Part shown: positions 2,983 through 47,245 of the stretch, one piece after another
Numbering within the stretch: position 1 is the stretch's first letter
Layout: each line of letters starts with the position of its first letter
NCBI GenBank assembly: GCA_051453625.1
Contig: JBOZIK010000001.1
Coordinates: 13,797,803 to 13,846,914, forward strand
DNA from: Welwitschia mirabilis
Lineage: Eukaryota
Length of the DNA: 49,112 nucleotides
Reading direction: 5' to 3'
The notes under the pieces: model-generated
The model's database searches: none
What the model was told of the DNA's origin: nothing
Seen by the model: the letters and a program-made list of their open reading frames with translations, nothing else
Made by a program: the position numbers and the translations under genes

Positions 2983-5092
2983 TGATAGAGGATCCCTCCA
3001 GAAGAGCTCATTAGAAGAAACTAGTAAGTAAAAATCTAGGATATTTTTACTTTAGGATGTTAGATAAAGTCATGGACAAGTTTAAAAAGAAGTTTAAAAA
3101 TAAGCCTCTTTGTCAAAAGAGGCTAGTATCTTTAGGGGAACTTAGAGAGTCTAGGGATGTGTTAATACTTCTAAATGATCTAGATCTTTCTTACTTTTTT
3201 GAGAGTTATGTGTTACCCTACTTCGTTTTTATCCAAATGGTCTATTATNNNNNNNNNNNNNNNNNNNNNNNNNNNNNNNNNNNNNNNNNNNNNNNNNNNN
3301 NNNNNNNNNNNNNNNNNNNNNNNNNNNNNNNNNNNNNNNNNNNNNNNNNNNNNNNNNNNNNNNNNNNNNNNNNNNNNNNNNNNNNNNNNNNNNNNNNNNN
3401 NNNNNNNNNNNNNNNNNNNNNNNNNNNNNNNNNNNNNNNNNNNNNNNNNNNNNNNNNNNNNNNNNNNNNNNNNNNNNNNNNNNNNNNNNNNNNNNNNNNN
3501 NNNNNNNNNNNNNNNNNNTACTTTTTGCATTTTTTGTTTTCGTTAGTTTAGGCAATTCAGGACGTATTGCACATTGTAAATGGGGGGTAGGATACATATA
3601 TATTGCATATTTCTGATCCAATTTTTTTGATCATGATAAATCATTATTGTAAAACCTCCTTAATTGACCCATTTTTTTCCTCAAATCCAACTTGATTATC
3701 CCCCTTTATAAAATATTATGGAGTCCTCCCTTCCTTATTCCCATATGTCTACTTATCTCTCTTAGCTCTAGTTGTTTTCTTTTATTTTCTCTATCTTTAT
3801 AAAATTCAATACTCTATCAAAATGATAGAGGATCCCTCCATTAGAGCTCATTAGAAGAAACCAATAAGTAAAAATCTAGGATATTTTTACTTTAGGATGT
3901 TAGATAAAGCCATGAACAAGTTCAAAAAGAAGTTTAAAAAGAATCCTCTTTGTCAAAAGAGGCTAGTATCTTTAGGGGAACTTAGAGAGTTTAGGGATGT
4001 GTTAAGACTTCTAAATGATTTAGATCTTTCTTACTTTTTTGAGATTTATGTGTTAGCCTACTTCATTTTTATCTAAATGTTCTATTATAATGCTTTATTT
4101 GATGCATATTTCTCTACCCTTATGAATCTTATTTTGGAGAGGAGAATTCAAGTTACTATAGATCTGATATCCTCCCTCATAAATATTTCTATAGAAGACT
4201 ATAAGGAGTTTTTTTCCTTTATGCCACTCCATGGAGGATAAGGTGGAGGTCATCAGGGAACTCTGTGAAAAGGTCCTTCAATGGAATACCCTCAAATATT
4301 ATTGTCTTCATTTAGTTTTTTACTTACAATTTTTTACCTTTTACTGGTTATTGTGATGAGACCCAAAANNNNNNNNNNNNNNNNNNNNNNNNNNNNNNNN
4401 NNNNNNNNNNNNNNNNNNNNNNNNNNNNNNNNNNNNNNNNNNNNNNNNNNNNNNNNNNNNNNNNNNNNNNNNNNNNNNNNNNNNNNNCTATCCTGATTGC
4501 TAATATCTATTGTTATTTTAGAGTCCAAATACATTTCAAACTTGAAAAGTTAACTCTTATGTCTTCCATTGGGCATGCTATTCTATCCCACATGCATATT
4601 TTCTCTAAATTCAATAAATCTTTTAAGTCTTTTTCTTCAAAGTAGACCTCCCCTAAAGAAACTCTATCATACCTCAAGACACTAGATTATCATAATCAAC
4701 ATATGAAAAAGGTACTTATTACAGTAAGGTATAAGATTATAGACACTTTTAAGAAAGTCAGTAGCTCTATTTAAAAGGAATAAAAGAAGAAGAAGAAGAA
4801 GATGACTTAGATTTTGAAGAAGAATCTGAGAAGAAGGAACAANNNNNNNNNNNNNNNNNNNNNNNNNNNNNNNNNNNNNNNNNNNNNNNNNNNNNNNNNN
4901 NNNNNNNNNNNNNNNNNNNNNNNNNNNNNNNNNNNNNNNNNNAAGGTACTTATTACAGTAAGGTATAGGATAATAGATACTTTTAAGGAAGTCGGTAGCT
5001 CTATTTAAAAGGCAATAAAAGAAGAAGAAGAAGAAGATGACTTAGATTTTGAAGAAGAATCTGAGAATAATGAAGAAGAAGAATCAAATTAA
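2983..5092 (+). pseudogene. Degenerate env-like/extra ORF of a SIRE-type copia element (partly duplicated across assembly gaps)
   Basis: Translation RLVSLGELRE.RDVL.LLNDLDLSYFFE.YVL.YF.FI.MFYYN resembles plant retrotransposon extra-ORF proteins. The acidic C-terminus EEEEEDDLDFEEESE is followed by SIRE-type multiple PPTs. Confidence 0.55.
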
Positions 5093-5962: not shown

Positions 5963-7219
5963 TGTTAAGTTATAATTTTGTGAAGTTGATGTCAAACTAA
6001 CATTTTTTAATATAGTAAAATATGTTGTATTTATTTTAGAAAATATTAGTCCTTATATATTAAAAACCNNNNNNNNNNNNNNNNNNNNNNNNNNNNNNNN
6101 NNNNNNNNNNNNNNNNNNNNNNNNNNNNNNNNNNNNNNNNNNNNNNNNNNNNNNNNNNNNNNNNNNNNTTCCATCAATGTTAAAGGGAATGATTATTAAG
6201 TTATAATTTTGTGAAGTTGATGTCAAACTAACTTTTTTTAATATAGTAAAATATGTTTTATTTCTTGTAGAACATGTTAATCCTTATATATTAGAAGTAA
6301 CAAGCATTTCTTACTAGCTATCTTAAACTTGACAAGTTATAAAACCTTAAAGGGGTCAACCACATTCCTAATGCATCGATTGCACCTAGGCTAAAATGTT
6401 TCAACTATTTTTCATATGGATTTGGCTAAACTAAAATATTATTAGCCGAACCTAGACATATGCAGTTGACTAGACTCCTAATTGGGTTAATTAGAGTTGA
6501 AGACATGAAAAAATTAGGTTGATCAAAACAAGATGGGATCGACTAACTTTAGTAACAACACTCAATGGGGTTAATTAAATATTTTAAGTGGTTAACTGAT
6601 CATCATGGAAATGGAATTTTATAGACTATTTTCTAGTCATTACCTTCCTATTTTTATCCATTGGAATATTAGATCTACTTGTAAAACCCTAAAATCTATC
6701 TCCTATATAAACCTTAGTCATCAAAATTATGAGAATCTTTTTACCTAACCAAAAAAATTAAAAAGTCATTATTAATACTCTGGTTAATTAGTTTGCATAA
6801 TATATGCTTGGATTTGTGACAATATTTTCAAATAGTGTAGTACTATCTTTGCTATACTTTAGATCTATTGAATCCTGTGCATTATGGTACATTCTAAAGG
6901 TTGAGATTGAGCCTTTAAAAGTCTGATTGTAAAAGGTTATAGGTAAACTTGAAAAATCTAAAAAGTAAGAAACAAGGATCTAGATCAGTCTTATGTATAA
7001 GCTGATTTCTAAGAGTGGAGTAGGAAATTTCCTAAACCACTATAAACTATGTTTTTGATAAATCTCCATTGGTATTTTTTGGTTTTAGTTAGTTTTATTT
7101 TATATCTTTTAATTATTTTATATGCACAAATATTTTTTAGTATTTAATACTTTATGAAGATATATATTTTTTTTTTTAAAAAAATCCTATTCACCTCCTC
7201 CAGGGTTCTATATCTAACA
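5963..7219 (+). mobile_element. 3' LTR of a SIRE/Maximus-type Ty1/copia element
   Basis: Starts TGTTAAG after the PPT and ends cctattcacctcctccagggttctatatctaaCA (SIRE-type cctattcaccccc end). TATA-like ctatataaa at about 6703; gagtggagtagg...aaccactataaa block at about 7013-7045. The first ~100 bp are duplicated across the gap at 6069-6168. Confidence 0.72.
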
Positions 7220-8640: not shown

Positions 8641-8670
8641 CAACTAGGGAGAGAAATTAGAATTATTAGT

Positions 8671-9170
8671 AAAAATTTTTGGACTTAAAAAATTTTTAGA
8701 CTTAAAAAATTCTGGACTTAGAAAATTTTTAAACTTAAAAAATTTCTTGACTTAAAAAATTTTTAGGGCTTAAAAAATTTTTTGGACTTAAAAATTTTTA
8801 GAACTTAAAAAATTTTAGAAATTATAAATTCTATGGACTTAAAAATTTTTAGGACTTAAAAAATTTGAAAACTTAAAAGTTTAAAAAGTTTTAGGACTTA
8901 AAAAAATTTAGGACTCAAAAAAATTTTGGACTTAACAAAATTTTAGGACTTAAAAAATTCTAAGACTTAAAAAATTTTTAGACTTAAAAAGTTATTAGAC
9001 TTAAAAAATTTTTTGACTTAAGAAATTTAAAATAATTTTGAACTTAAAAAAAATTTTGGACTCAAAAACTTTTAACTTAAAAAATTAAATTTTTTTAACT
9101 TAAACAAATTTTGGACTTAAAAAATATATAAAACTTTTGGACTTAAAAATTTTTTAGGAATTAAAAACTT
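8671..9170. repeat. Minisatellite of ~19-20 bp (consensus about TTTTTAGGACTTAAAAAA), roughly 25 copies, at the 3' end of the PLE
   Basis: Directly visible repeats of ggacttaaaaaa(a)tttt(t)a; one monomer also starts the other pLTR copy at about 13467. Confidence 0.95.
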
Positions 9171-9500
9171 TACAAGGGTCTCACACTATAGTGAAGACAT
9201 AATGAAAAACATAATACTAAAGAGAAAAAAAGAAATCCAAGAAAAGAAACAAAAGATAGCACAAAGCACTTTCAAGGAGTTACACCCCTCATTAGTGTAC
9301 TTTTGAATTTCTAATTTTTAAATCTTTGAATACATGAAGAAGATCACTTCTTTAAATAGGAGAGGTTACCCTAACTATGTGTGGACAAAGGGACTCAAAG
9401 AAAGAGTAGGAAAAAATTACATTTTAAATTTTAAATTCACATCTTAGGAAATAATAAATGAAAAGAAAAGAAAATAAGTAACACCCTATGGAACAGATAG
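9152..9500 (-). repeat. 3' pseudo-LTR of the PLE
   Basis: Aligns by eye with 13467-14107 (tttacaag..ctatagtgaag..aaacataatact..agatagcacaaagca.tttcaaggagttacacccctcattag..ttttgaatttctaattt..tttaaatag..aaataagtaa..ccc.atg). Confidence 0.85.
9258..9301 (-). ncRNA. Decayed minimal type I hammerhead ribozyme (copy in the 3' pLTR)
   Basis: Minus strand reads AGTACA-CTAATGA-GGGGTGTAACTCCTT-GAAA-GTGC-T-T-TGTGCT. Stem I is AGTACA/TGTGCT (6 bp with one GU). The core CUGAUGA carries a G>A change, followed by stem II, GAAA and a near-palindromic minimal stem III A-G(C>T)GC-T. Confidence 0.75.
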
Positions 9501-9565
9501 AAAGCATGGGGATGGGAAAAATAGAATCTTCTAACTACTCTGATTAATCTAGAATCTTTATGGAA

Positions 9566-12500
9566 TTAGTTACATGTAAAAAGTTTTCCAAGTTTAGGAG
9601 GATTACACTAGTAAATTATTGGATTTGAAATAACTGGGCTCAGCATGAGATCTTTTTGATGAAGTCTGGAGAGTATAGGATCTAGGATTGCCTTCATGTT
9701 ACAAGATTTTGTTAAAGGATTAAAATCCATTTTGAAAATAAAGGTATCTCTTTCTTCTTCTCAATGCTTTCACATATGCTATGGAGAAGAGCTATTTTAT
9801 TAAATACATAAACTTTACTAAAGTAATGTAAAAGAAACTTGAAAGGATAGCCATGGGTGCAAAGGTAAAGATACACATTACACTTAAGTTTGGAGTAGTC
9901 TTGAAAGTTGGACTCCTACATCATGTATCTGCAAAGATATAAAATAATAAAAGCCTTTTTCTAATGGGCTGAATGCCAAGAGGAGAAGGGGATGTATTGA
10001 TAGGCATTCAAAGGTTTTTAATAGCACTTGATGGACAAAATTCCTATAGAATCAAATGTAAGATCTTTGAATAAAACAACATAAAACATATTAATAGATT
10101 CTTGGGACATTGTAGAAGTAATGTAAATGATGGGGTACATAGAATTATAGTTCTCCAGAAATATTAGTAAGGAACATAAAAGACCAGTTCAAATACCAAA
10201 GCTATTATCAATATAACACTTGTAGTAGAAACGAAAATTTCTGTTCATACTAGAGAAAAGATGTTTTTCTAGATGAAAGAGGAATAAAAGAACATGCATT
10301 ACTATAAAATCACTACCTAGAGCAGTACCATGAACTTATTTGAACAAATTGCCATCAAAATCTAGATAATATTCTCTAAGGATAAGAGAAGATAAAGAAA
10401 TAATGGCATCTAATAAAACTCCTAATTAGAATAATGATGCAACATAAAATACTCTTCAACCATAGATTTAAGAGTAGAAAGATCTACTTTAGTGGAAATA
10501 CTAGGATACAAGGATTTCACATTGAAGGTAAAGAAGAATCCATCTTGTGGAATGGATAAAAACTTAGATTCCTAATGAGAGAAACTAAGTCTATGATATG
10601 GATGAGCTGGCAAAATAGGATGGGGGAGAGTAAGTAGTAAAGAAGAAAAGATGTTAGTTTTAAAATATACACAAAGTAGTTACAGATGGGATGACCAATA
10701 AAACTAGGTTTGTTTATTTTGAGTATAAGGCACATGCATGAGCCTTATTAACTAATACCTAAAGGAGAGCATCTCTAAACTACTAAAGAATAGGAACAAA
10801 TGGTCAAGAAGATGAAGAAGATTAGAATGTAAAATATTTCAAGGGATTTCATCAAATAGATAATAAACATGGGTATTTAAAAGTTGTTTATGAGCTTTTG
10901 TGATATACCATAACATGTCTAGTATAATAATCCAAAGGTTTTTATCTGCTAGTTTAATGATAATAGAGTTATCTCTTTAAATNNNNNNNNNNNNNNNNNN
11001 NNNNNNNNNNNNNNNNNNNNNNNNNNNNNNNNNNNNNNNNNNNNNNNNNNNNNNNNNNNNNNNNNNNNNNNNNNNNNNNNNNCTAGTTTAATGATAATAG
11101 AGTTATCTCTTTAAATTCGTTTTAGGAATTCTAAAAGATAACAAGATAGACAAGGATAATTAATTTCTATAAAAGAACTCAAAGCAGACAAAGTGTATCA
11201 TAACATTGACTAATGTCCTTTCAAGATAAGGGTTGACCTTGCTAGCTGGGGGATTCCAAGAATTAGGAGGTTAAAGCTTCATTGGGGCAATGTCAATAGC
11301 ATGAAGGAATGGATTGAATTTTTTACCTGATCTGGTCTAATGCCAAAGAATGTATGAAGGTAAAGACATATAACAAATGCTTTGAATTCATCCATCATTA
11401 GTTAAGGACTCATAGGAGGGAATCTAGGATGTATTTGAGATCATATCTAAAAATATTTTTCTCTTCATAGTTTAAAGAATGGAAAGAAAGATTATGAATA
11501 TCTAGGTTAAAAATTCTATTTTCCTCTTAAGGGATCTATTTTCTTTCAAAAATGATCATAGAGAAGAGGGAAACAGATGTGGCAAGAATCCAAAAATTTA
11601 TGCTCAGTCAGAGGAAGGATTTATCCATCTAAATAGAGTAGCATTTCCATTGAAGGTATTTGGCTATAAATCATATTAAGTAGTTTGCCATATCTGTTGG
11701 TAAGTTTACCACTTGTCTAAACTACTCATAAGCATTGTAGATGAATGGTTTGAAGGGAGTTCCATTTTGTTTGTAGGAGTTATTCTGGAATGGCCCTTAA
11801 TCATTTAAATCAAAATAGATTTGCTATTTTCATCCATAAGGATTACGACTTTGATTTACTTATGGCTGGTGGTAAGCTTGTGGCTAGAAGCTAGACTAAG
11901 AGGTAGATTTAGAGCATTGATCTTTTTGTATAAATTGAATCCTTCACTAATGTTGTTGTTATTACTACTTTTAGTTGAAGAAATAGGTCTTTGTGACTGA
12001 GGAGATTGAATTTTTTGAAGAACGTTTTGGGTAATTTTGTTAGTTTGAGATTCTATGACCTACTTAATAATTTTTGTAATCGAAGGTTCAACTTTAATCT
12101 AGTTAACTCCTTATTCTGCAGCATTTCTGGCATTACATTAACTGATTTTGCATTTTTTTGGCTTCTTGTTCAAGCTAAAGCTATAAAAAATAATTGCAAC
12201 AATATTCAAAAATCTTAGATTCAAAAGCATTTAGAAGTGATTTTAGATTGACTATAGCTCTAGATAGTTTAGAGTAATTAATTTTGGAAATAGCTTCTTT
12301 GAGTTTCTTAAAATAAGAAACTTTGAAACCATCAAGTTTTGCTTTTAGAGAATCTTCATAAGATGAAGCAATGGTGAAGTAAGCCTACTAAATTTCTAAT
12401 TAGATTTAAACTAAATTTGGGCAAACTCAACATGCATGGCTTTATTAATTTAAGGATACTCAATAGAAAGCTATGGGGATATAACCTATAGGCTATGAAT

Positions 12501-13420
12501 AACAAGATCTTCTGNNNNNNNNNNNNNNNNNNNNNNNNNNNNNNNNNNNNNNNNNNNNNNNNNNNNNNNNNNNNNNNNNNNNNNNNNNNNNNNNNNNNNN
12601 NNNNNNNNNNNNNNACTGATTTTGCATTTTTTTGGCTTCTTGTTTAAGCTAAAGCTATAAAAAACAATTGTAACAATATTCAAAAATCTTAGATTCAAAA
12701 GCATTTAGAAGTAATTTTAGATTGACTACAGCTCTAAAGAGTTTAGAGCAATTAATTTTGGAAACAGCTTCTTTGAGTTTCTCAAAATAAGAAACTTTAA
12801 AACCATCAAGGTTTACTTTTAGAAAATCTTCATAAGATGAAGCAATGGTGAAGCAAGCCTACTGAATTTCTAATTATATTTGAATCAAATTTGGGCAAAC
12901 TCAACATGCATGACCTTATTAATTTGAGGATACTCAATAGAAAGCTATGGGGATCTAACCTATAGGCTATGAATAACAAGATCTTCTGAGAGAAGGAAAT
13001 GAAGTTTTTCCTTTAGATGAGTGGCTTAAGCAGTAATGTGAAGATTATCAAAGTAATCTTTAGAAGAGATAATTATAAGATCTTCCAGTGGAGAAGGAAT
13101 CTTGACATGAGATACAAGAGAAAAGTTTGCATTCTTTACTTTTTGGAGCTCTGCTTCTAGATGTTAAAATTAACCCTGTAATTAACTGCATTTCTATAAA
13201 ATATTACAAGCAAGATCCTTTCAATTGGTCTTTTGATGACTGAACATAGCCTTATTATCCTTGAGACATTTATATGGGTATATTTATACTAGGGCCTATG
13301 CTAAAGAAGAAGATACAACTTGCAAGAAATGCTCAGCTATGAATCTTGAGCTTAAGGTTGAGTAGCAGGATCTTGTGGTGAAGAAGGGAAACCAAATTCA
13401 TCCTAAAAGATATAAGACAT
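9566..13420 (-). pseudogene. PLE polyprotein: N-terminal helical/low-complexity region plus Penelope-type reverse transcriptase, no GIY-YIG detected
   Basis: Manual translation across stops and frameshifts, in PLE order: IHNLSFHSLNYEEKNI (~11.5 kb); IIIKLADKNLWIIILDMLWY...KQLLNTHVY (~10.9 kb); LKINKPSFIGHPICN (~10.7 kb); FTFNVKSLYPSI (~10.5 kb); FDGNLFK*VHGTALGS; YKCYIDNSFGI*TG (YIDD box at 10204-10215); CY*KPLNAYQYIPFSSWH; HGYP; NPPKLGKLF then stop. Candidate ATG at 13420. Confidence 0.9.
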
Positions 13421-13574
13421 GATAGTCTACAATATTCTTCAAAGGTGTAGTAAAGAGAAAAAGAAATCTTTGGACTTAAAAAATTTACAAGTATCACATG
13501 CTATAGTGAAGTTAAGAACAAAAAACATAATACTGAATAGCAAAAAAAGAAATCGAAAAAAAGAAATAAAAGAT

Positions 13575-13618
13575 AGCACAAAGCATTTTCAAGGAGTTAC
13601 ACCCCTCATTAGCCTACT
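13575..13618 (-). ncRNA. Decayed minimal hammerhead ribozyme (copy in the 5' pLTR)
   Basis: Minus strand reads AGTAGG-CTAATGA-GGGGTGTAACTCCTT-GAAA-ATGC-T-T-TGTGCT: same core as 9258-9301 with a weaker stem I. Confidence 0.65.
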
Positions 13619-13740
13619 TTTGAATTTCTAATTTCTAAATCTTGGAATACATGGAGGAGATTCCTCCTTTAAATAGAAGAAGCTAGGGGCCCAAAGAAAG
13701 GATAGGAAAAAATTTCACTTCAAATTTCAAATTCCCTTCT

Positions 13741-14090
13741 TAATAAATAAGAAACAAAAAGAAATAAAATAAGTAATAGAAAAAAATAAAATAAGAAATA
13801 AAAAGAAAATAAAATAAGAAACAAAAAATAAAATAAGAAACAAAAAGAAAATAAAATAAGTAATGGAAAGAAACTAAAATAAGTAATAGAAAGAAAATAA
13901 AATTAGAAATGGAAAGAAAATAAAAGACAGAAAGAAAATAAAATAAGAAATGGAACGAAAATAAAATAAGTAATGGACAGAAAATAAAATAAGTAACGGA
14001 AAGAAAATAAAATAAGAAATGGAAAGAAAATAAGATAACTAATAGAAAGAAAATAAAATAAGAAATAAAAATAAAATAAAATAAGTAATG
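13741..14090. repeat. A-rich ~22-bp minisatellite (about AAGAAAATAAAATAAG(T/A)AAT(G/A)GA)
   Basis: Visible repeats of aaataaaataagtaat/aaataaaataagaaat; the matching position in the 3' pLTR has only about one unit. Confidence 0.9.
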
Positions 14091-14107
14091 CCCCATGAAA
14101 TACATAG

Positions 14108-15245
14108 TTGTCAGGCCTAGGCCTCCACCATAGTTATCAGGCCCATGGACAATTTCATCATGCTACTTACAAACCCCCTTCTATATATTAACTATAAAAA
14201 TATTATCTCTGGGTGAAAAAAACAAGGTGTACTAACCTCAGATTAAGTTGTATATAATGGTTTCCCTTGCCTTATCTTTTAACTCATGGGACATGTTCTT
14301 CGTCATATCCTAAAGTTCAAAAATTCTATTGTTAAGCATGCCTAGCGTGGAGCACAACTGGAACGGATGACCTTTTGAAAAGTGCCACCTACAAGTATAG
14401 GCTTGGGGCCTGTAAGCGATTTCATCATGCTACTTATAGCCCCCCTCTATATATTAACTCTAAAAATATTATTTTTAGATAAAAAATAAGGCATAATAAT
14501 CTTAAGATAAGTGGTATATAACTATTTTCTATTCCTTGTCTTTTAACTTGTGGGACATGTCTTTTACTGTATCATGAAACCCAAAAATTCCATGGTTAAG
14601 CATGCCTAGTATGAAGTACAACTAGGATGGATGACCTCCCAGGAACTGCCACCTACAACTANNNNNNNNNNNNNNNNNNNNNNNNNNNNNNNNNNNNNNN
14701 NNNNNNNNNNNNNNNNNNNNNNNNNNNNNNNNNNNNNNNNNNNNNNNNNNNNNNNNNNNNNACTCATGGGACATGTTCTTCATCATATCATGGAGTTCAA
14801 AAATTTTATTGCTAAGCATGCCTAGCGTGGAGCACAACTGGGATGGATGACCTTTTGAAAAGTGCCACCTACAAGTATAGGCTTGGGGGAACACATCATT
14901 ATTAGGCCTGTAAGCAATTTCGTCATGCTACTTATAGCCTCCCTCTATATATTAACTATAAAAATATTATTTTTAGATAAAAATAAGGCATAATAACCTC
15001 AAGATAAGTGGTATATAACTATTTTCTATTCCTTGTCCTTTAACTCATGGGACATGTCTTTTGTCGTATCATGAAACCCAAAAATTCCATGGTTAAGCAT
15101 GCCTAGTATGAAGGACAACTGGGATGGATGACCTCCTAGGAACTGTCACCTACAAATATAGGTCTGACCCCTCATCATAGTTATTAGATCCATGGATGAT
15201 TTCATCATGCTACTTATAGTCCCCCCTCTATATATTAACTATAAG
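14108..15245 (+). repeat. Tandem array of ~270-280 bp units, each containing a 5S rRNA-derived internal control region (Cassandra-like or 5S-derived)
   Basis: Four blocks (~14318-14383, 14582-14647, 14798-14863, 15080-15144) such as aattccatggttaagcatgcctagtatgaagtacaactaggatggatgacctcccaggaact align ungapped at roughly 70% to plant 5S rRNA as recalled (aactccgcagttaagcgtgcttgggcgagagtagtactaggatgggtgacctcctgggaagt). The unit marker atttcatcatgctactt recurs at ~14152, 14419, 14917 and 15199. Confidence 0.8.
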
Positions 15246-16030
15246 AATATGTATGACTAAAAAAATAAAAACTACAAAATATAAAGAAATATGTGAAATA
15301 ATAAAAAATGAAAACTTTAGTAGTTCTAAATGTATAAATGAAGTAATAATAATGCAAAAGAATAAGTACAAAAATAAAAATGCTAAAATGAAAAGACATT
15401 CCTATAAGAAAAAATTGTGGAATTTTTTCTTTAATGTTTTTAGGACCTATGAAAGGGGAAGAAAGAAGAAGCGAAAAATAAATAATGGGAAAATAAAATT
15501 CTTATCTTCAAAAATATTTTAAAAACTTAACTAACCTTGCTAAAAAATTTGCTATAGAGCTAAAACTTTTATGGTAAAGAAAATAAAACTATAGTAACAT
15601 AAGATAAAATGAAGAAATAAAAGGAAAAAAAAAAGAGAACGAGTTCAGGTTCTACTAGAAGAGGACTAGTATAATATAATGGGAAGAAGAAAAATAGAAA
15701 GAGTATTGAACATGAATCAATATAAAAGAAAAAATTATAGTAAAAATTTAAAAAATTCCTTAGAAATAGATTAGTATAATTTAAAAAATTATAGTAAAAA
15801 AATAAAAAAGCACTAAAAAAAGACTAATGTAACTAAAAAATTGTAGTAAACTAAGGAAAATAGTTTAGAAGGGGATTAGCATAAATAAAAGTTCAAAAAA
15901 GGAGGAGAAAAAGCAAAAAACAAAATAGAGTAGAAATGAAAATTATGTGCATGCTTTACTATAGCTAATATGCCATTATCCCTAGTTAATGATGTTAAAA
16001 ACCTATGGTAATTAGTTCTTGTTATGACTA

Positions 16031-16036
<6 letters not shown>

Positions 16037-16087
<51 letters not shown>

Positions 16088-16090
16088 NNN

Positions 16091-16144
<54 letters not shown>

Positions 16145-16172
16145 TGTGTGTCTGTGTGTGTGTGTGTGTGTG
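16037..16172. repeat. (TG)n microsatellite
   Basis: Directly visible dinucleotide run interrupted by 3 Ns. Confidence 0.98.
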
Positions 16173-45039: not shown

Positions 45040-47245
45040 AGTTCATAACATCAGGTTATGAAATAAATGAGGTAGATTCCAACATAAGGAGGTATTCTTA
45101 TTTTAACTAGGCAACCCCCATGGATTTTAAGAATCCATAGAATTCACATCATTAGTCTATTAAGTAAATGATGTAGTTTGCAACATTAGGAATTGCTATT
45201 ATTTTATCTAAATAGCTTATATGACCCATAAGAATCTAAGGAATTTACATCATTAGTCTAAGGAGCATGAGATATTTTTCAATGTAAGGANNNNNNNNNN
45301 NNNNNNNNNNNNNNNNNNNNNNNNNNNNNNNNNNNNNNNNNNNNNNNNNNNNNNNNNNNNNNNNNNNNNNNNNNNNNNNNNNNNNNNNNNACCCATAAGA
45401 TTCCAAGGAATTCACATCATTAGTCTGAGGAGCATGAGATATTTTCCAATGTAAGGAAGTCTTACTGTTCTAAGTAAGTAGCACCTATGGCTTACAAGGA
45501 TCCATAGAATCTATATTATTAGTTTATGGAGTAAATAAGGTAGTCTCCAACATAAGGGAAAACCACTATTCTTAATACATAGTGCATATAGCTTATAAGG
45601 ATTTATAGAGTCTACATCATTAGTCAATAAAGTAAATGATATATTTTCCAACATAATGCAATGTTACTATTCTAACTAGGTAGCACATATAGTGCACAAA
45701 GATTTATAAAGTCTACATCATTAGTTTATGAAGTAAATGAGGTACTTCCAACATAAGAAGATGACACTTTTTTACTAGGTAATCCACATGACATACAAAA
45801 TCCCACAGAGTTTACATCATTAGTCTATGAGTAAATTAAATAGTTTCTAATAGATAACATTACTATTTTGAATAGAAAGTCCATATAGCTCACAAAAACT
45901 TATAGAATTAACATCATTATTCTATGGATCAAATGAGGTAGTTTCCAATATAAGAAGACACTACTATTCTAATTAGGTAGCACATATGACACATAAGAAC
46001 TTATAAAATTTATATTATTAGGCTATAGAATAAATGAGATAGTTTCTAGTATAAAGGACACTATTATTTTTACTAGGAAATCTATATGAAAAACAAGAAA
46101 TCATAGAGTTTACACCATTAGTTTAAAAAGAAAATGAGACAATTTCCAACATAAGGAGATGCTTTTGTTCTAACTACATAGCTCATATGATCTAGAAAAA
46201 CCTAGAGAGTTTATGTCATCAGTTTACAAGTAAAATGTGTTAGTTGCAAACATAATGGAGTGAACTATTCTCACTAGTAGTTCATATGGATTATATGAAT
46301 CCATAGAGTCTATATCATTATTCTACAAAGTAAATGAGGTAGTTTCTATCATAAGGAACTCCATTAATCTAACTAGGTAATTCCTATGACTTATAAGGAT
46401 CAAATCTACAAAATTAGGCTATAAAAAATATGAGGTAGTTTCCAACATAAGGGATGTTATTATTTTGACTAGGTGAATTATATACCCTATAAGAACTCAT
46501 ACAATTCACATCATTAATCTACAAAGAAATTAAGCTATTTTCAACATAAAACAACACTATTATTCTAACTAGGTAATCCATGTCGCTCATAAGAACTTGC
46601 AAATTTCACATCATTATTCGATGGAGAAAATGTGATAGTTTCCAACATAAGAGGGTGTCAATATTTTGATTAGATACTACATATGGCTTACAAGAACTTA
46701 CAGAGTATACATCATTAGTATATAAAGTAAATGAGGTAATTTTAAATATAAGGAAATGCTATTATCATAATTAGGTAGTTCATATAGCCCAAAAGAACCC
46801 ATAGAGCCACATCATTAGTCTATGAGGAAAATGAGGTAGTTTCCAACATAAGAAAACATCATTGTTCTAACTAGGTAGACCATATAGTTTAATAGTCTGT
46901 CCAACAAATGAAGTAGTTTCCAACATTAGTGGTGTCATACTTCTAACTCAATGGTCCATATGGTCCATAAGAAAACAGTTTACATCATTAGTCTATGAAG
47001 TAAATGGGATAGTTTTTAATATAAAGGGGTGTCACTATTTTTACTAATGGCTCATATAATTCAAAACAATTTTCAAAGTCCACATCATCAGTTTATAAAG
47101 AAAATGAAGTAGTTTCTAAGATAAGAGAATATTATTATTCTAACTAGATAGTCCATATGACCCATAAGAACTTATAAAGTTCACATCATTATTTTGAAGG
47201 AAATGAAGTAGTTTCTAACATAGGGAAATAATAATTATTCTAACC
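45040..47245. repeat. Diverged ~100-bp satellite array, about 21 monomers
   Basis: Recurring catcattagtctat.gagtaaatgaggtagtttccaacataagg...ttctaactagg...catatg..cataaga at ~100-bp spacing, with one truncated unit near 46890. Confidence 0.95.

Follow-up and report, generated by a model that had tools for sequence, protein, structure and literature searches.

The stretch of DNA analysed here (49,112 nucleotides of contig JBOZIK010000001.1, the whole of which is referred to as the window) contains, on the minus strand between positions 9147 and 13463, the remains of a Penelope-like element (PLE). The element region is A+T-rich, and under the standard genetic code it gives no long open reading frame (ORF) on either strand. 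The features found at this locus very probably represent a dead, interstitial copy of an endonuclease (EN)-deficient PLE of the Coprina type, lying in a heavily cytosine-methylated and probably gymnosperm-like plant genome. The main features are as follows.

9147 to 13463, minus strand: full-length unit made up of a 5′ region, an ORF1 remnant, the remnant of the reverse transcriptase (RT) ORF2 and a 3′ untranslated region (UTR); delimited at 13464 by the junction with an upstream partial copy and at 9147 by the end of a repeat
9564 to 11586, minus strand: decayed RT ORF2 with the N-terminal PLE motifs (IHNLS.., ADKNLW), the RT motifs, the thumb and the terminal motif IIY-stop-CNPPKLGKLFTCN-stop, identified by tblastn, phmmer and alignment of the C-terminus with relatives
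9566 to 9568, minus strand: TAA taken as the end of the ORF by a first reading made from the letters alone (the sequence-only reading); a stop made by decay at a conserved Arg position
11815 to 13178, minus strand: decayed ORF1 remnant, a helical part followed by a part rich in Q, N and S, with the match to an ORF1 hidden Markov model (HMM) at 13178-12864
9147 to 9481, minus strand: 3′ pseudo-long terminal repeat (pLTR), which is the 3′ UTR of the full unit, from self-comparison and global alignment
13464 to 13776, minus strand: 5′ pLTR, which is the 3′ UTR of a 5′-truncated upstream copy and runs on via an expanded minisatellite to about 14135, from self-comparison, with the continuation traced by eye and with Tandem Repeats Finder (TRF)

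The length of the full unit counts in two N gaps and an internal duplication of 374 bp.

The RT was identified using as query the frame piece at 9697-10398, with stops read through, in a phmmer search of 1.84 billion protein representatives, which returned 2979 matches at E<=1e-3, 736 at E<=1e-10 and six at E<=1e-30. The best match, P0003, a protein of 604 aa, was found at E 5.6e-54 with 47 % identity, and tblastn placed its residues 1-580 at 11586-9730 in pieces that are spread over three frames with stops between them. A further frame excursion can be seen by eye at approximately 10744-10560, where LILKINKPSFIGHPICNY pairs with YLLPKLHKPVLVGRPICSY. The PLE hallmarks that can still be read, namely IHNLS..L.YEEK, ADKNLW, ..KINKP..GHPIC.., FNVKSLYPSI, GTALGS, YIDN, QKPLNAYQYIPFSSWH and GYP.KFLL, align with those of the relatives, and the element has the N-terminal motifs, the DK(G/N) upstream of RT1-7 and the thumb that characterise a PLE-type RT. 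Intact proteins of 580-626 aa from Cryptomeria and Selaginella are among the matches, the named relatives being from Cryptomeria japonica, Ginkgo biloba, Selaginella moellendorffii and Closterium. In the window, tblastx turned up no further copy of the element.

In a maximum likelihood tree of 48 RT rows, which was built without named Coprina, Athena, Dryad or PLE-X reference sequences, the window RT lies on a long branch (1.47) within a clade of seven rows (95/93; starred in the tree), together with the Cryptomeria and Ginkgo proteins. This clade is nested in one of 21 rows (100/97) in which Selaginella is basal, and P0241, a relative that does carry an EN, was placed elsewhere, far from the window RT.

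Decay of the coding regions and the upstream ORF

The window contains only 87 CpG dinucleotides in 45,224 bases, an observed/expected ratio of 0.11, with a G+C content of 26 %, and the same ratio is 0.38 for CAG, 0.42 for CTG, 0.06 for CCG and 0.08 for CGG. Depletion of CpG and CHG is the pattern expected of methylation at CG and CHG sites followed by deamination. Together with the named relatives and the tree, it points to a plant, probably a gymnosperm, as the most likely host. The substitutions were examined at 162 conserved codons, each of them covered by four or more relatives with an agreement of at least 75 %. The window copy has kept 106 of these unchanged, and the 45 single-base differences comprise 16 G>A and 14 C>T changes, four reverse transitions and 11 transversions. 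Conserved positions are hit by six in-frame stops: three at Gln, two at Arg and one at Trp. C>T/G>A decay, not an alternative code, produced the in-frame TAA, TAG and TGA codons, and the copy in the window was destroyed by this deamination together with frameshifts and the internal duplication.

The region upstream of the RT was interpreted with the help of related loci. A scan of metagenome contigs yielded 604 stretches that fit the pattern, of which 211 were confirmed and 80 kept, giving 76 loci with relatives, and 45 of the 76 were examined for an ORF1. An ORF of 150 to 934 aa lies directly before the RT ORF, or overlaps it, in 43 of the 45, nearly always in another frame, and the two loci that miss the 150 aa threshold have ORFs of 149 and 136 aa. 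The relatives' ORF1s belong to no Pfam family, and 27 of the 43 form a single similarity cluster, which was the source of the HMM profile. This profile matched the window at 13178-12864 with 21.5 bits when three minus frames were searched and with 18.0 bits (independent E-value 3.2e-7) when the six-frame translation of the entire window was used, in which nothing outside the element scored above -1.4 bits; in the core of the match, DLtPsSLRvkPPkl is paired with DLVIHSLQVRSPQL. The duplicated copy at 12515-12393 reached 1.5 bits with the same profile. The stretch at 12267-11815, which has no support on its own (-3.4 bits in the six-frame search, 0.8 bits in the minus frames), was counted as ORF1 by position and composition only. 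When the N-termini of the relatives' proteins were compared to the upstream region of the window, the sole match was a weak one, to P0032 (E 3e-4).

The sequence-only reading had seen here a frame of several hundred codons and, in it, a long N-terminal extension of the RT. The peptides it pointed to, HLEAELQKVKN and KITQNVLQKIQSPQSQRP, were both found, in one minus frame, but there is no single ORF, as the RT homology extends over three frames with stops, and the relatives keep the upstream ORF in a frame of its own. The supposed extension is the decayed remnant of a separate ORF1, and the lineage therefore has two ORFs. ORF1s of this general kind are on record: in the legend to Fig. 1 of PMC8557442 PLEs have an ORF1 that contains a coiled coil and in some cases is set apart by a frameshift, and the model of Coprina-1_Alen described in a part of PMC13159263 consists of an ORF1 with coil and disorder, DKN, RT and thumb.

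Two peculiarities were seen among the ORF1s of the relatives. At one locus (L023, 445-3171) the upstream ORF carries an RVT_2 (copia-type) fragment, scoring 61.6 bits, that is probably a nested or chimeric insertion. At another (L004, 844-1413; also L005 and L018) ORF1 includes a low-complexity domain of the PNPNPK type, which is encoded by repeats resembling the C-strand of telomeres (AACCCTAACCCTAAA..) and thus places a telomere complement inside the coding region.

The missing endonuclease

A GIY-YIG domain was not detected by Pfam in three minus frames at E<=1 or on the minus strand at 9100-14200 at E<=10, and a six-frame scan, a check that the sequence-only reading had itself proposed, was also negative with Pfam at E<=10 (plus strand 9100-14300, minus strand 9100-14200). 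Likewise, the EN part of P0241, used as a phmmer query on the six-frame translation of the entire window, never scored above zero. Because Pfam misses even the RT of this decayed copy, the argument for an EN-less element is based on the relatives. Eleven EN-less relatives share the tail ..P.ICWRNPRKLGSFLLRSRF.. and continue for only two to nine residues beyond it, and two further EN-less rows stop earlier, P0003 before the shared tail and the Ginkgo model, which is cut. The sole GIY-YIG-bearing relative in the aligned set, P0241 (811 aa), runs approximately 170 aa past the tail, with a Cys-rich linker and the nuclease. At the position of the tail the window reads IIY-stop-CNPPKLGKLFTCN-stop-F, which is the same tail with Cys, Trp and Arg codons changed by transitions to TAC, TAG, TGT and TAA. 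None of the 32 best matches of the RT includes GIY-YIG (local Pfam), and among the relatives of P0003 that are listed with precomputed domains PF01541 is present in one of 120. In the related loci, GIY-YIG was found in none of 26 stop-to-stop RT ORFs and none of 42 ORF1s (7 and 35), with P0241 as the positive control detected at 26 bits. Hence, the absence of GIY-YIG is a trait of the family and not a truncation of the window copy.

The central proposals of the sequence-only reading, that this PLE lacks a GIY-YIG EN and that it is a plant PLE distinct from the Dryads, were thus borne out, the former by the Pfam scans and the EN-less ORFs of the relatives and the latter by the want of a C-terminal EN and by the clade shared with the EN-less Cryptomeria and Ginkgo proteins. 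Its reasoning stood only in part. The frame does stop after NPPKLGKLFTCN, at the TAA at 9568-9566, but this is not the natural end, as the TAA aligns with a conserved Arg inside the terminal motif of the relatives (..CWRNPRKLGSFLLRSRF..); the natural end of the RT is expected a few codons beyond it, since the relatives stop two to nine residues after the motif. The pLTR, thought to begin about 70 bp after the stop, is present as a direct repeat but begins 85 bp after the TAA. Nothing coding follows, in agreement with the claim that no room is left for a C-terminal EN, but the nearby pLTR is no proof in itself, as it is the element's own 3′ end.

Three other explanations were considered. An element with an EN, Dryad-like or Neptune-like, whose C-terminal EN was lost from the window copy is highly improbable. 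The copy is so badly decayed that Pfam cannot detect even its RT, and PLEs with an EN (Dryads) are known from conifers according to passages in PMC8557442, but the window still has the terminal motif that ends the intact EN-less relatives, the 3′ UTR comes directly after the RT and is duplicated as the pLTR, and in the tree the RT groups with EN-less proteins, far from the one relative with an EN. It is also very unlikely that the element is an EN-minus member of PLE-X, a group inside Naiad/Chlamys that is found in Selaginella and Chara and has a true N-terminal extension, though PLE-X, as described in part of PMC8557442, does combine the lack of an EN with an N-terminal extension in early-diverging plants. 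The marks of these groups (CxC and IFD, and in Naiad and Chlamys an N-terminal EN) were not found in the window element: there is no CxC upstream of IHNLS in the window or in the relatives, and RT motifs A and B are as far apart as in the canonical relative with an EN, hence no IFD. The upstream coding region, which at 43 of 45 loci forms an ORF of its own, nearly always in a different frame, also differs from PLE-X, set against it by description.

We give as little credence to the view that the element is not a plant pseudogene but a nearly intact element under a ciliate-type code, with TAA and TAG read as Gln and perhaps TGA as Trp. Such a code would fit the in-frame TAA and TAG at conserved Gln and TGA at conserved Trp positions, the G+C content of 26 % and the long ORFs that translation table 6 gives across the window. 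However, several frame changes are needed to follow the RT homology whatever the code, two in-frame stops are at conserved Arg, codons other than stops show the same bias towards C>T/G>A (30 versus 4), CpG and CWG are strongly depleted as CG and CHG methylation predicts, and the nearest named relatives are land plants. A ciliate or karyorelictid code was therefore dropped, given the dinucleotide ratios, the substitution pattern and the relatives in plants. For annotators, the case shows that deamination can turn Gln, Trp and Arg codons into in-frame TAA, TAG and TGA, so that a genome affected in this way may look as if it used a ciliate code.

Repeats, hammerhead motifs and telomere context

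The repeats and small motifs in and around the element are listed here together with the gaps.

12141 to 12988, minus strand: 374-bp stretch of ORF1 present twice, at 12141-12514 and at 12615-12988, with the N gap 12515-12614 in between; the copies are 93.6 % identical
10983 to 11082, no strand: N gap in the RT, flanked left and right by identical 33-base stretches; probably an assembly overlap that was not merged
9250 to 9303, minus strand: candidate decayed hammerhead (ACA CTAATGA GGGG..CCTT GAAA GTGC TT TGT), found with a relaxed pattern
13567 to 13620, minus strand: second candidate decayed hammerhead copy, found with the relaxed pattern
8670 to 9171, no strand: 17-bp tandem array (about 25 units) adjoining and overlapping the 3′ end of the element, from TRF and by eye
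13745 to 14090, no strand: minisatellite with a 23-bp unit and a 110-bp higher-order unit, part of the upstream partial copy, from TRF and by eye

The pLTRs at 9147-9481 and 13464-13776 are 335-bp direct repeats with 78 % identity over 337 columns, and their global alignment has 268 matches, 40 mismatches and 32 gap columns, 25 of the 40 differences being transitions. The direct repeats are present because a partial copy of the element's 3′ end (13464 to about 14135) lies before the full unit, the arrangement by which a partial tandem copy gives rise to pseudo-LTRs. The minisatellite at 13745-14090 is an expansion of approximately 1.5 units that are present at about 9440-9510. The two 374-bp copies in ORF1 differ by 24 mismatches, of which 20 are transitions, and by no indels. 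That a GIY-YIG domain might be hidden in one of the N gaps, which the sequence-only reading had named as the finding that would overturn it, is unlikely: the flanks of 10983-11082 are identical, with the peptide IQRDNSIIIKL read on both sides and the RT alignment continuing without loss, and the gap at 12515-12614 lies between the ORF1 copies.

The 76 related loci were searched for hammerhead ribozymes using a simple core pattern with a paired helix II, and 20 shuffles served as the control. The pattern matched 33 hammerhead-type motifs in 32 of the loci (e.g. at 3586 in L001), without exception in the sense orientation of the RT, compared to a mean of 0.55 in the shuffles. Where they follow the RT ORF the distance is 126 to about 520 bases, and the others precede ORF1; one locus, L034, has both, at 1739 and 6878, which are 5139 bases apart. 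Helix III of these motifs consists of one base pair, closed by a palindrome of 4 bases (CTAG, CATG, TGCA or CCGG), as in the dimer-forming PLE type. Both pLTRs in the window read ACA-CTAATGA-GGGG-TGTAACT-CCTT-GAAA-G(or A)TGC-TT-TGT, approximately 250 bases past the end of the RT. When a relaxed pattern was used, in which the positions invariant among the relatives are kept and transitions allowed, the window contained only two matches, both of them in the pLTRs, compared to a mean of 0.12 in 300 simulations. The candidate would turn canonical if a few transitions were undone, though this reasoning is post hoc and unproven.

Telomere repeats, a hallmark of EN-minus PLEs, accompany several of the relatives. 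In L056, (CCCTAA)n in sense orientation is found at either side (2-109 and 4382-4477), L018 ends in nine plant-type CCCTAAA units (6239-6301), and in L004, L005 and L018 pairs of CCCTAAA are found about 290 bases past the hammerhead. To judge from the intact relatives, a live element would have a 5′ region followed by ORF1, encoding a helical protein with a low-complexity tail, and, in another frame, ORF2 with the PLE N-terminal motifs, DKN, RT motifs 1-7, thumb and a short conserved tail, and no EN; its 3′ UTR would be approximately 400 bp long and include a minimal hammerhead ribozyme. Transcription would proceed through the pLTR and be followed by hammerhead processing, as the literature and the relatives suggest. 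Because such elements are without a nuclease, reverse transcription would be primed on a free DNA 3′ end, not on a nick made by the element, and the typical primer would be a telomeric G-overhang that anneals to C-strand telomere repeats close to the RNA's 3′ end. Priming of EN-minus PLEs from free 3′ ends is presented in the introduction of PMC8557442 and the discussion of PMC13159263, and the mechanism would apply here on the strength of that literature, the support in our data being the telomere context of the relatives and not the window copy. The window copy is interstitial, perhaps because it marks a former chromosome end or was inserted where the DNA had broken.

A few further features of the window were recorded. 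One 17-bp unit also closes the upstream partial copy, so the array may be the tail of the element or its target. A 264-bp tandem repeat family is found at 14152-14658 and 14899-15057, directly upstream of the partial PLE copy, and a long (CA)n/(TG)n microsatellite, translated as HTHTHT, at about 16020-16170. At 3-1691 on the plus strand, two collinear frame pieces resemble, by eye, the gag zinc knuckle (CKDSYHIIKDCP) and the aspartic protease (ALIDIGASVNIMP) of a long terminal repeat retrotransposon; they contain in-frame TAA and TAG codons as well as two TGA and are probably another deaminated element.

Relationship to known groups of Penelope-like elements

The element is an ordinary member of an already known group, the plant PLEs that never had an EN. 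Though the sequence-only reading implied novelty, Table 1 of a review from 2022 (PMC9033089) already contains EN-minus plant PLEs, including those of Selaginella, Pinus taeda and Picea abies (the conifers from Lin et al. 2016), and a passage in PMC12477314 also records EN-minus PLEs in Selaginella. The literature on PLEs in ciliates or gymnosperms yielded nothing further than the review. With the EN-minus PLEs of P. taeda and P. abies the window element shares the lack of an EN and a probable gymnosperm setting, its own nearest named relatives being Cryptomeria and Ginkgo; this comparison is by listing and not by sequence.

Coprina, represented by Sm1 and Sm2 of Selaginella and by Coprina-1_Alen of Ascochyta lentis, resembles the window element in the PLE motifs, DKN, thumb, lack of GIY-YIG and terminal direct repeats; Coprina-1_Alen also has an upstream ORF1 with coil and disordered regions, and through the relatives of the window element the likeness extends to the hammerhead motifs and C-strand telomere repeats. 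In contrast to Coprina, the window copy is dead, interstitial and without telomere repeats, and Coprina elements usually have one ORF, as stated in a part of PMC13159263, versus two in the window lineage. The connection is an indirect one, made by the Selaginella protein that is basal in the clade and by the Repbase Coprina elements Sm1 and Sm2, which passages in PMC13159263 assign to Selaginella.

The Athena elements or Terminons of bdelloid rotifers are similarly EN-minus, with two ORFs, a coiled-coil ORF1 separable by a frameshift, a hammerhead and telomere-complement repeats (legend to Fig. 1 of PMC8557442). However, they are an animal lineage and far larger multi-gene units, whereas the relatives of the window element are plant and algal proteins of approximately 600 aa. 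The Dryads, which are Penelope/Poseidon elements of conifers, are alike in being gymnosperm PLEs with pseudo-LTRs but have a C-terminal GIY-YIG EN and are ascribed, in a section of PMC8557442, to horizontal transfer from arthropods, whereas the clade of the window element is without an EN and reaches back to Selaginella. The Dryads are marked by a C-terminal GIY-YIG EN with the CCHH motif, which was not found in the window element, and the lack of an EN and the separate clade exclude the element from the Dryads.

Several points weigh against the assignment to an EN-deficient PLE of the Coprina type, or against parts of it. With no curated reference in the tree, the Coprina label depends on the architecture, the DKN motif and the Selaginella relative, and DKN is also present in P0241, which has an EN, and is hence not exclusive to Coprina. 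In the decayed copy Pfam is blind to the RT (RVT_1) too, a low sensitivity that makes the local GIY-YIG negatives weak when taken alone, and the true size of the gap at 12515-12614 is not fixed, which strictly leaves room for a hidden domain, though the relatives have only ORF1 there. The hammerhead calls in the relatives rest on our own pattern, as Rfam at the gathering score found no hammerhead in 20 of their loci. In the window Rfam also gave nothing at the gathering score and only chance-level matches at E<=10 in 8900-14400, and a covariance model (R1) built from 19 relatives did not recover the window candidate. The best matches of this model in the window, at 47048-47099 and 46183-46230, were at chance level (E 0.26-0.33) and were set aside. 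Arrays of YYYTAAA units number zero in the window even when one mismatch or C>T decay is allowed, and the link to telomeres suggested by the sequence-only reading was therefore not shown for the window copy; telomere repeats may have been lost from a copy of such age.

As one more dead EN-minus PLE copy in a plant genome, the window element adds little to a group already on record for Selaginella and conifers. The related metagenome loci, by comparison, show the live element clearly, with ORF1, RT, palindromic-loop hammerhead and telomere repeats. That the EN-minus copy is interstitial matters only if there are many such copies in the genome. A broader proposal, which we regard as possible but rather unlikely, is that a land-plant lineage of Coprina-like EN-minus elements has been inherited vertically since before the split of lycophytes and seed plants, is perhaps still intact in conifers (Cryptomeria), and perhaps inserts away from telomeres without a nuclease, e.g. 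at breaks in satellite arrays such as the adjoining 17-bp array. If vertical inheritance and nuclease-independent interstitial insertion were both true, gymnosperm genomes would be a place in which to study nuclease-independent interstitial retrotransposition.

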